Assembly: GCA_964016885.1 (NCBI GenBank)
Contig: CAXHJY010000345.1
Coordinates: 1 to 39,403 of the forward strand
DNA length: 39,403 bases
Reading direction: 5' to 3'
Source of the DNA: Eledone cirrhosa
Taxonomy: Eukaryota
The notes below the pieces were generated by a model that saw nothing but the letters and a program-made list of their open reading frames with translations, did not search any database and was not told the origin of the DNA. Numbering within the stretch: the stretch's first letter is position 1; the number at the start of each line of letters is the position of its first letter. The translations under genes and the position numbers were made by a program. Positions 11,837-24,200 of this stretch are shown piece by piece.

Positions 11837-13733
11837 ATATATATATATATATATATATACATATATATATACATATATATATATATATATATATACATAT
11901 ATATATACATATATATATACATATATATATACATATATATATACATATATATATACATATATATATACATATATATATATACATATATATATATATACAT
12001 ATATATATACATATATATATATACATATATATATATATATATACATACATATATATATACATACATATATATATACATACATATATATATACATACATAT
12101 ATATATATACATATATATATACATACATATATATACATACATATATACATACATATATATATATATACATATATATATACATACATATATATATATATAT
12201 ATATACATCCATATATATATACATATATATATATATATATACATATATACATCCATATATATATACATATATATATATATATATACATATATATATATAT
12301 ATATATATACATATATATACATATATATTATATATGTAAATATATATATATATATACATATATATATACATATATATAAATATATATACATATATATATA
12401 TATATATATATATATATATATATATATATATATATATATACATATATATATATATATATATATATACATATATATACATATACATACATATATATATATA
12501 TATATATATGTATATATGTATATATATATATGTATATATATACATATATATATACATATATATATATATACATATATATATATATACATATATATATATA
12601 TACATATATATATATACATATATATATATACATATATATATATACATATATATATATACATATATATATATATACATATATATATATATATATACATATA
12701 TATATATACATATATACATATATATATATATATATATATATATATACATATATATATATATATAGATATATATATATATATATATATACATATATATATA
12801 TATATATATATATATATACATATATATATATATATAGATATATATAGATATATATATATATATATATACATATATATATATACATATATATATATACATA
12901 TATATATATACATATATATATATACATATATATATACATATATATATATATACATATATATATACATATATATATACATATATATATACATATATATATA
13001 TATATATATATACATATATATATATATATATATATATATATATATATACATATACACATATATATATATACATATATATATATATATACATTTATATATA
13101 TATATATATACATATATATATATATACATATATATATATATATACATATATATATATATACATATATATATATATATATACATATATATATATACATATA
13201 TACATATATATATATATATATATATATATATACATATATATATATATATAGATATATATATATATATATATATATACATATATATATATATATATATATA
13301 TATATACATATATATATATATATAGATATATATAGATATATATATATATATATATACATATATATATATACATATATATATATACATATATATATATACA
13401 TATATATATATACATATATATATACATATATATATATATACATATATATATACATATATATATACATATATATATACATATATATATATATATATATATA
13501 CATATATATATATATATATATATATATATACATATACACATATATATATATACATATATATATATATATACATTTATATATATATATATATACATATATA
13601 TATATATACATATATATATATATATACACATATATATATATACATATATATATATATATATATATATACATATCTATATATATATATATATATATATACA
13701 TATATATATATATATATATATATATATATATAT
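11837..13733. repeat. C-interrupted (TA)n microsatellite (CATATA) between B and B'
   Basis: Directly visible; opposite polarity to the G-interrupted arrays on the far side of each element. Confidence 0.95.
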
Positions 13734-13794
13734 AAAATGTTAAAAAAATAATGAATAAAACAATGAAACAGTTCCTTATATTAAACAAAAATAG

Positions 13795-21251: not shown

Positions 21252-24200
21252 TATATATATACATATATACATATATATATATATATATATATATATATGT
21301 ATGTATATGTATATATATATATATATATATGTATATATATATATATATATATATATATATGTATATATATATATATATATATATATATATATATATGTAT
21401 ATATATACATGTATATATATATATATGTATATATATATACATGTATGTATATATATATACATGTATGTATATATATATACATGTATGTATATATATATAC
21501 ATGTATGTATATATATATACATGTATGTATATATATATACATGTATGTATATATATATACATGTATATATATATATGTATATATATATGTATATATATAT
21601 GTATATATATATACATGTATATATACATATACATGTATATATATATATATATGTATATATATATACATGTATGTATATATATATACATGTATATATATAT
21701 ATGTATATATATATGTATGTATATATATATGTATATATATATACATGTATATATATATATGTATATATATATACATGTATATATATATATATGTATATAT
21801 ATATGTATATATATATGTATATATATATATGTATATATATATGTATATATATATATATGTATATATGTGTGTATATATATATGTATATATATATATATGT
21901 ATATATGTATGTATATATATATATATATATATATATATATATATGTATATATGTATGTTATATATATATGTATATATATATGTATATATATGTATATATA
22001 TATGTATATATATATATATATATATGTATATATGTATGTATATATATATATATATATATGTATATATATATGTATATATATATATGTATATATATATGTA
22101 TATATATGTATATATATATGTATATATATATATATGTATATATATATGTATATATATGTATATATATATATATATGTATATATATATGTATATATATGTA
22201 TATATATATATATATGTATATATATATGTATATATATGTATATATATATATGTATATATATGTATATATATATATATGTATATATATATGTATATATATG
22301 TATATATATATATATGTATATATATATGTATATATATGTATATATATGTATATATATATGTATATATATGTATATATATGTATATATATATGTATATATA
22401 TGTATATATATATATATGTATATATATATGTATATATATGTATATATATATATATGTATATATATGTATATATATATGTATATATATGTATATATATATA
22501 TATGTATATATATATGTATATATATGTATATATATATATATGTATATATATATGTATATATATGTATATATATGTATATGTATATATATATGTATGTATA
22601 TGTATATATATGTATATATATATATATATATATATATGTATATATATATGTATATATATGTATATATATATATATGTATATATATATGTATATATATATA
22701 TATATATATTTATATATATATATATATATATATATATATATATATATATATATATATATATGTATATATATATATATATATATATGTATATATATATATA
22801 TATATATATGTATATATATATATATATATATATATATATATATGTATATATATATATATGTATATATATATATATGTATATATATGTATATATATATATA
22901 TATATATATATATATATATATATATATATATGTATATATATATATATATATATGTATATATATATATATATATGTATATATATATATGTATATATATGTA
23001 TATATATATATGTATATATATGTATATATAGGTATATATATGTATGTATATATAGGTATATATATGTATGTATATATATGTATATATATATATGTATATA
23101 TATATATATGTATATATGTATACATATATATATGTATATATATGTATATATATGTATGTATATATATGTATGTATATATATGTATATATATATATGTATA
23201 TATATATATATGTATATATGTATATATATATATGTATATATATATATATGTATGTATATATATATATGTATATATATATATATGTATATATGTATACATA
23301 TATATATGTATATATATGTATATATATGTATGTATATATATGTATGTATATATATGTATATATATATATGTATATATATATATATATATATATATATGTA
23401 TATATATATATATATGTATATATATATATATATATATATGTATATATATATATATATATATATGTATATATATGTATATGTATATATATATATATATGTA
23501 TATATATGTATATATATATATATATGTATATATATATGTATATATATGTATATGTATATATATGTATATGTATATATATATATATATATGTATATATATG
23601 TATATATATATATATGTATATATATGTATATATATGTATATATATATATATGTATATATATGTATATGTATATATATATATATATATATGTATATATATG
23701 TATATATATATATATGTATATATATGTATATATATATATATATATGTATATATATGTATATATATATATATATATATATATATATATGTATATATATGTA
23801 TATATATATATGTATATATATATGTATATATATATATATATATATGTATATATATATATATGTATATATATATATATATATGTATATATATATATATATA
23901 TGTATATATATATATATGTATATATATATATGTATATATATATATATGTATATATATATATATATAAGTATATATATGTATATATATATATATGTATATA
24001 TATATATATATATGTATATGTATGTATATATATATATGTATATATATGTATATATATATATATATATGTATATGTATGTATATATATATATGTATATATA
24101 TGTATATATATGTATATATATGTATATATATATATATGTATATATATATATATATATATATATATATATATATATGTATATATATGTATATATATGTATA

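Follow-up and report, generated by a model that had tools for sequence, protein, structure and literature searches.

The window analysed here is a complete, unplaced 39-kb contig of Eledone cirrhosa (CAXHJY010000345.1, 39,403 nt; C372 in our numbering) with TA repeats at both ends. It holds two copies of one 5'-truncated Penelope-like element with inverted arms, which self-comparison of the window placed in opposite orientations, element B (7623-11836) and element B' (13734-17452). Each lies between inverted copies of its own flank, Y for B and X for B'; X and Y are unrelated. The 1.9-kb spacer between the elements consists of the Y mirror, about 100 nt of near-pure TA and the X mirror. Read from right to left, with rc for reverse complement, the observed order is X-(arm core arm)-rcX followed by rcY-tail-(arm reversed-core arm)-tail-Y. 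The junction left by the 5' truncation has two matches in the 3.0-Gb assembly, one in B and one in B', and the two cores differ at 10 of 2835 columns. A tail of about 131 nt is present at both ends of B (T-T) and at neither end of B' (N-N). B and B' are probably the reciprocal products of a single aged insertion, rearranged through its arms long after it had inserted and rejoined in (TA)n. The features concerned are the following.

7623-11836, minus strand: element B, 5'-truncated copy of a putative Hydra-clade Penelope-like element, with inverted arms and the ~131-nt tail at both ends (T-T)
10254-10778: remnant of the GIY-YIG-type open reading frame (ORF) of B
7623-8207, plus strand: left tail (7623-7756) and arm a1 of B; outer alleles of T type, inner alleles of 3' type
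11063-11836, minus strand: right arm a2 and tail (11703-11836) of B; outer alleles of T type, inner alleles of 5' type
about 11308-11494: 187-nt insert in arm a2, later than the arm, with a 5-nt direct repeat; like a short interspersed element (SINE), a label read from the sequence by eye with no tool support
13734-17452, plus strand: element B', the same truncated copy in opposite orientation, with the tail at neither end (N-N)
14462-14986: ORF remnant of B'
13734-14177, plus strand: left arm a3 of B'; outer alleles of N type, inner alleles of 5' type; ends at the 5' junction
17009-17452, minus strand: right arm a4 of B'; outer alleles of N type, inner alleles of 3' type
11837-12378, plus strand: flank Y, inner (mirror) copy, token score 147.7
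6592-7622, minus strand: flank Y, outer copy, divided by a 285-nt insert
6950-7234, no strand: the 285-nt insert, in the outer Y copy only
12379-12477, no strand: junction zone of Y and X, nearly pure (TA)n with runs of 50 and 24 nt
12478-13733, plus strand: flank X, inner (mirror) copy, with a 482-nt tandem duplication (about 12610-13575)
17453-18309, minus strand: flank X, outer copy, first part
18310-21251, minus strand: long interspersed element (LINE) with an open 950-aa APE and reverse transcriptase (RT) frame, in the outer X copy only
21252-21308, minus strand: flank X, outer copy, beyond the LINE

The mirror around B' is real. The original prediction had noticed four pairs of rare interruptions that recur as reverse complements on the two sides of B', and all eight motifs were found in place: CATATCTA at 13669 and TAGATATG at 17496, each single in the window, ACATTTAT at 13570 and ATAAATGT at 17545, CATATACACAT at 13531 and ATGTGTATATG at 17581, and TAGATATATATAGAT at 13323 and ATCTATATATATCTA at 17771. 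For the run-length alignment that it had suggested, TA arrays were coded as tokens, each combining a run length with an interruption; the left flank was read outward and aligned to the right flank, skipping the LINE. The X mirror scored 98.6, against 15.2±1.9 for shuffled arrays, and none of 300 shuffles scored as high; of its 41 aligned tokens, 40 agreed in the interruption and 33 in the run length too. The alignment ran from 13698 to 12478 on one side and from 17474 to 21308 on the other, i.e. across the LINE, which bears out the predicted recurrence there of the block at about 12475-12545. Past 21308 the TA array continues without a mirror to 28166. A length of about 1.2 kb had been given for the mirror; this holds for the left copy (1.26 kb) but not for the right one (about 0.92 kb), 482 nt having been duplicated in tandem in the left one (see the AA tokens at 13575 and 13093).

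The prediction had dealt with B' alone, and the twin element B with its own mirrored flank went unmentioned. For Y (11837-12378 against 7622-6592) the score was 147.7 compared to 17.0±3.1 for shuffles, again with 0/300 as high, and six non-cognate controls (Y against X both ways, and four distal blocks from the 21.7-26.9 kb array) remained at shuffle level. On the plus strand, interruptions in the outer flanks are of TG type (48:1, 37:2 and 421:7) and those of the whole spacer of AC type (31:0 and 58:3). The outer flanks therefore look like parts of one original array, the spacer like an inverted copy, and no DNA of original polarity remains between the two mirrors. The spacer is circularly permuted, Y then X, with the join somewhere in the near-pure (TA)n of 12379-12477.

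The family encodes RT followed by a C-terminal GIY-YIG endonuclease (EN) in one ORF, with frames of 629-654 aa in longer copies (L038-L041, L007-L008; L-numbers denote fetched loci). B and B' retain the EN end only, and the 174-aa ORF remnant had no match in Pfam. Family copies have RWR in place of RWK and SDKTGN with DKT for DKG (L011-L012, L021-L023), while the CxCX5C linker, CxxC and CxH appear as CNCRNKANC, CRLC and CNH in B' itself and in family copies. By eye, there is no CxxC between the VY and YIG motifs, where two cysteines lie 8 residues apart, and the CCHH finger is absent. TA runs were seen at nearly all family copy ends displayed. Judged by motifs and domain order rather than by a tree, the family matches the Hydra clade, the C-terminal EN+ Penelope-like elements (Craig et al. 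2021, PMC8557442). The parts of that paper available to us describe for this clade the same domain order, RWK (RWR here), DKT, the CxCX5C linker, and CxxC and CxH around conserved E and N, as well as (TA)n targets, an inverted 5'-truncated copy and a tail at one end. The tail is longer here, about 131 nt versus 30-40 there, and the inverted repeats described there consist of element sequence only, without mirrored host flank.

Ordinary copies with inverted arms carry the tail at one end and none at the other (T-N). In the first seven copies examined it was at the 3' end in five and at the 5' inverted end in two, and exact patterns gave 942+4450 tail ends and 59+1633 tail-less ends. The subgroup closest to B, complete genome-wide, comprised 26 outward-facing pairs: 24 T-N, one T-T, which is B, and one N-N, which is B'. 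For the wider family on C1:0-97 Mb, all 24 pairs were T-N (C1, C2 and C3 are, in our numbering, chromosome-scale contigs of the 3.0-Gb assembly). One short, 30-nt length class held 170 T-N pairs, two N-N pairs and one apparent T-T that proved to be T-N; seven listed loci of this class also stand in the C1:0-97 Mb count, and the counts were not summed. Mirrored copies thus amount to 2/173 in the short class, about 1-2% of the inverted-arm copies there. Searches for N-N pairs with gaps of 395-425 and 205-235 found none and had no denominator. A single tail together with a short direct target-site duplication (TSD) or unrelated flanks fits all 44 fetched T-N copies, although a TSD is unreadable within TA; B and B' do not fit.

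In tandem family copies the tail continues into the 5' region of the ORF. Such an arrangement accounted for a T-T candidate at C1:132862205; a second at C1:63550966 had 2 nt of tail only, in a direct tandem repeat, and was counted as T-N, and C1:88741616-88759222 was two separate T-N elements. Locus L075 was dropped from the T-N set, its left tail being internal to a tandem, and L009, L013 and L015 were excluded since only a single arm had been fetched. The family also includes many short, non-coding palindromic inserts of 250-600 nt made of tail plus arm and an inverted arm (loci L044-L073), with a preferred turn near arm position 344 and 170 of them in one 30-nt length class.

The copies that break the one-tail rule are mirrored wherever they occur: 5 of 5 symmetric-ended copies compared to 0 of 44 T-N copies (Fisher 5e-7), with mirrors of 0.3-2.3 kb, two of them including non-TA sequence. 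The T-T copy at C1:328468206-328473531 has a 2273-nt mirror of non-TA DNA at 98.9% identity. Its arms differ at 11/1080 positions and its flank at 4/2120 (p=0.002; p=0.02 for the outer part only), and the mirror copies differ by inserts of 189 and 94 nt. The N-N copy at C2:102014650 has a mirror of about 310 nt with 2 mismatches that includes LINE sequence, and the copy itself is a perfect 213+213 palindrome (arms 0/213 differences, flank 2 differences); the N-N copy at C3:155263517 has one of about 340 nt (token score 79.4 against 12.5±2.5, 0/300). All three loci are in chromosome-scale contigs, and the sequence for 20-27 kb around them is free of N. Over the same distance no partner copy was found for any of them, nor a partner arm within about 27 kb of the C1 locus. 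At their far ends the C1 and C2 mirrors are joined with a few bases of homology at most, those of the window in pure TA. Among the pieces listed, no Logan contig bridged the C2 junction, which carries no weight either way.

Anchored mirror scores were 72-162 for the five symmetric copies and at most 5 for 42 of the 44 T-N copies. The two exceptions arose from (TG)n on both sides (41) and from a 90%-identical dispersed repeat (34), and the best of 250 non-cognate pairs reached 84 via a shared repeat. Three T-N copies with 0.9-1.6 kb of interrupted TA array on one side had no mirror. As B and B' go back to one event, the five mirrored copies are four independent events. Mirroring of host flanks at Penelope copies is thus real, recurrent and rare.

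The alleles of arms and cores speak to the age of the rearrangement. Across the four arms of B and B', 8 derived characters fall into reciprocal classes (T-outer 2, N-outer 3, 5'-inner 1, 3'-inner 2), and 4 differences are private. Each of the eight occurred in 0-2 of 34-87 other arm hits, and the T-outer G in these 2 of 57 subgroup arms only. In all four arms the outer alleles go with the flank and the inner alleles with the core, and in both products the switch lies between arm positions 299 and 519; the inverted duplication starts inside an inverted repeat that was there before it and had already diverged. Within 2025 nt of core, leaving aside two columns of an A/T run (alignment noise), B and B' have 14 derived sites in common and 3 private ones (p=5e-5), so that about 80% or more of the divergence would be older than the duplication. 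Over 580 arm sites, some family copies show 0-1 departures from the commonest letter, which suggests a low copying error at insertion and hence shared changes that are mostly due to ageing. Neither copy is the parent of the other, since B' has no tail and each has derived outer alleles absent from its twin. The 5' junction of a3, a 4-nt overlap at 14174-14177, has its sole other occurrence at 11063-11066; the duplicate sits at its own locus, and there was no re-integration at another site. The LINE, the 187-nt insert, the 285-nt insert and the 482-nt duplication are each found in a single copy and would therefore be later than the duplication.

We infer the mechanism of crossover and TA joining from this anatomy. 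The ancestor would have been X-(arm core arm)-tail-Y, the standard one-tail form of the family. A single crossover that joins an arm to its inverted counterpart in a second copy of the locus would yield X-E-rcX and rcY-rcE-Y (E, the element), with the cores opposite, the tail at neither or both ends and the alleles swapped between arm positions 299 and 519, and joining of rcX to rcY in pure TA would close the chromosome. The second copy could belong to the sister chromatid or to a circle excised by way of both TA flanks, or a cruciform could have been cut at the arms; the product is the same in all cases. One aged, then duplicated T-N ancestor explains ends, alleles, junction and polarity together. 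From two independent fold-backs one would expect cores of like orientation, unless one of them was flipped later. Elsewhere only one product would be kept, the flank of one side overwriting the end and near flank of the other; a break followed by fold-back through the inverted repeats already present, the other end being lost, might give such single-sided loci. Candidate triggers are breaks of the ordinary kind, fragility of the TA arrays and nicks by the family's own GIY-YIG nuclease.

A number of points weigh against a late exchange. The structure rests on the assembly of an unplaced contig, the 0.35% difference between B and B' is also of haplotype size, and the allele switch lies within the longest stretch over which the arms match perfectly, which is also where a mis-join is to be expected. 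Sister exchange, a circle, and tandem duplication with two inversions cannot be told apart. The identical arms at C2 do not date its mirror; the inner-arm differences at C3 are maybe only 2 events, leaving that mirror undated, and three of the C1 arm differences are in the 131-nt tail, which should date from the same time as the flank. A model in which the mirror forms at insertion also predicts that symmetric ends go with mirrored flanks, the five copies stand for four events only, and dispersed repeats give the anchored score false positives, one non-cognate pair (84) even exceeding B (72), besides the T-N values of 41 and 34.

The insertion-time model was that of the original prediction: cDNA would fold back through the inverted arm into target DNA and be rejoined downstream, B and B' then being two separate insertions. 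We consider this unlikely for the window. It agrees with the symmetric ends and mirrored flanks of 5/5 copies, and the near-identical arms of ordinary copies (32 differences in 5176 nt over 29 arm pairs, 4 of 29 with rare alleles in common) point to a single template. The perfect palindrome at C2 has a mirror no younger than its arms, and the available parts of PMC11702581 describe L1 cDNA ends that can self-anneal to hairpins and give foldback junctions. However, the model requires a third, parental copy that shared the unique junction and was lost, and its two daughters must have landed 1.9 kb apart in a genome of 3 Gb, exactly complementing each other (T-T and N-N). Most mutations of B and B' are shared, as expected of one insertion that already bore them, which speaks against a fold-back during the insertion of B'; the spacer is devoid of DNA of original polarity, and at C1 the arms are older than the mirror. 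Nor is mirroring a routine outcome. The predicted mirroring of other genomic copies was seen in all five symmetric-ended ones but in 0/44 ordinary copies, including the three beside long interrupted TA arrays, and in 2/173 of the short class, so that growth of the array at each insertion did not hold up. Self-complementarity of (TA)n, on which the prediction also relied, seems not to be needed, since non-TA sequence is found at the ends of two other mirrors. The short palindromes on C2 and C3 may still have acquired their mirrors by fold-back at insertion.

An assembly artefact, i.e. two T-N haplotypes joined head to head via arms and TA, or fold-back chimeric reads, we regard as equally improbable. 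The contig is unplaced and ends in TA on both sides, the locus is nowhere else in the assembly, the divergence is of haplotype size and the switch points lie in perfect-match stretches. Yet three wrong joins would be required, and chimeric reads do not create differences such as those between the mirror copies, namely the 2.9-kb LINE, the inserts of 187 and 285 nt and the 482-nt duplication. Moreover, three further mirrored loci are embedded in the gap-free chromosome-scale sequence described above, and the C1 copies differ by their 189- and 94-nt inserts.

A stepwise origin of the window seems somewhat less likely again. Unequal crossing-over between the TA flanks, which act as direct repeats on both sides, would give a tandem duplication, and two arm-mediated inversions, of the spacer and of one core, would follow. 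The final sequence and allele pattern would be identical, and extended mirrors would presumably ease the later flip of a core. This route takes three events rather than one or two, and it leaves the single-sided C1, C2 and C3 loci, with no partner copy nearby, unexplained. That the mirrored flank is element cargo or a chance match of interrupted TA, as the similar short run pattern opening the C2 and C3 flanks might hint, can be practically dismissed: the flanks of B and B' resemble neither each other nor those of other loci, and the token alignment against non-cognate and shuffled controls, which scored alike, refuted it for the window, in accordance with the predicted inverted copying of host DNA from the inverted arm.

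Several constituents of the late exchange between arms are known already: inverted pseudo-LTRs (pLTRs), one-sided tails, TA targeting, inverted-repeat fold-back and circle-mediated duplication. For Penelope elements, the available parts of Arkhipova et al. 2013 (PMC3846280) and Frangieh et al. 2024 (PMC11167929) describe an inverted pLTR and a 'tail', with, as here, two alternative ends a tail apart, inverted arms and a tandem tail running into the 5' region of the ORF. The joins reported there are short direct TSDs or microhomology, whereas we observed rare symmetric-ended copies with 0.3-2.3 kb of inverted host duplication. In the portions seen of PMC8557442 and PMC11167929, the origin of the inverted arms and the one-sided tail is described as undefined. 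Widely spaced and diverged inverted repeats are described to fold back in single-stranded DNA (PMC10164571, PMC7999016, in part), where an inverted duplication is likewise seeded by repeats and the non-homologous end is removed. Those cases, as far as the accessible text goes, come from yeast, cultured and cancer cells and are dicentric or amplifying, whereas the duplications here are short, stable and presumably germline, with both reciprocal products side by side in the window.

L1-associated foldback junctions and target-site inverted duplications (PMC11702581, in part) likewise have a retrotransposon at the centre of an inverted duplication, and self-annealing cDNA hairpins are proposed there; they are coupled to insertion in L1-induced cell clones, and the event in the window probably came later than insertion. 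Duplication through a circular intermediate (PMC7188851; compare PMC7450558 and, for ODIRA, PMC10766183) similarly gives an extra copy that is circularly permuted, as with Y joined to X. Here the copy stayed at its own locus, inverted and by arm homology rather than at a distant site. The novelty claimed for the mirrored flanks held in part: no report of mirrored host flanks at Penelope elements was found in the open-licence literature, supplements being outside the search, but inverted-repeat fold-back and exchange are themselves known.

Other observations were made around the mirrored and fetched loci. The flanks of the C2 and C3 N-N copies (L079/L080, L083/L084) open with a similar run pattern (5, AC, 11 or 9, TT), by chance or as subfamily cargo. 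The C2 left flank contains a short palindromic element of another family (L079:9278-9735) whose centre is occupied by 160 nt of mirrored LINE sequence, possibly because mirroring took place twice or because a hairpin broke at its tip. At C1 the mirror abuts, at its far end (L024:4830-4946), a sequence with what we take to be a hammerhead-like core on the minus strand, and another element may thus have cut the mirror short. A 187-nt repeat of 90% identity lies at mirrored positions around an ordinary T-N copy (L001:3715-3901 and L002:3643-3829); as it is too diverged compared to the arms (98%), we took it as chance neighbours. Inverted duplications unrelated to the family, of 0.3-1.5 kb and 97-99.9% identity, were met near fetched loci (L082:8031-10000 with L083:1-4386; L078:8772-9163 with L079:1357-1741; L030:1-2059). 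Inverted structures are common in this genome.

The window contig itself is a cluster of TA-targeting elements. Its LINE (18310-21251), the frame of which matched RVT_1 (3.5e-31) and Exo_endo_phos_2 (5.5e-14) in Pfam, has an unbroken 950-aa frame and a 3' tail of short repeats, is sited in TA and is probably young. At the left end of the 285-nt insert, a 10-nt inverted target copy (6940-6949) forms a miniature fold-back junction. The 6.9-kb interrupted TA array at 21252-28166 has apparent long internal duplications and an interruption pattern that drifts along its length. Degenerate tandem repeats, 65-80% alike, occupy the 3' untranslated region (UTR) at 14933-15733 of B' and 9394-10307 of B. 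By eye some of them look like what we take to be minimal hammerhead cores. Rfam did not confirm this: no hammerhead was among 150 of its 189 matches listed for 4600-21400, all of them below gathering scores, and no dedicated model was built. The Rfam matches listed were sub-threshold microRNA matches to TA/CA repeats. A second Penelope-like family, with CxxC inside GIY-YIG and Pfam matches to RVT_1 and GIY-YIG, is found at 4955-6473, 28196-30080 and 30076-32300, one copy being truncated and lying outside flank Y, the other longer, with inverted arms, and spanning about 28166-32300. A third Penelope-like copy at 34540-38250 is frameshifted and Hydra-like (RWR, DKT, CxCX5C), with inverted ends between TA arrays.

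In conclusion, the one-tail rule is sharp (24/26, 24/24 and 171/173 pairs) and its rare breakers all have mirrored host DNA. A tail at both ends or at neither is therefore a simple flag for inverted duplications. Extrapolated to about 5400 exact tail-end and about 1700 tail-less matches, a rate of 1-2% would give of the order of ten or more such duplications genome-wide. For annotation this is a warning, since element ends and flanks at mirrored loci are no insertion signatures. The window retains both reciprocal products with dated alleles and thereby a natural record of inverted-repeat exchange, which is otherwise mostly known from yeast and tumour cells. More tentatively, and with the odds against it, the family's own protein might make the mirrors, either by GIY-YIG re-cutting TA beside old copies or by cDNA folding back past the tail boundary. 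If so, symmetric-ended copies would be trapped intermediates of the formation of inverted arms and one-sided tails, and a family of more than 5000 copies would keep converting host DNA into kilobase palindromes.

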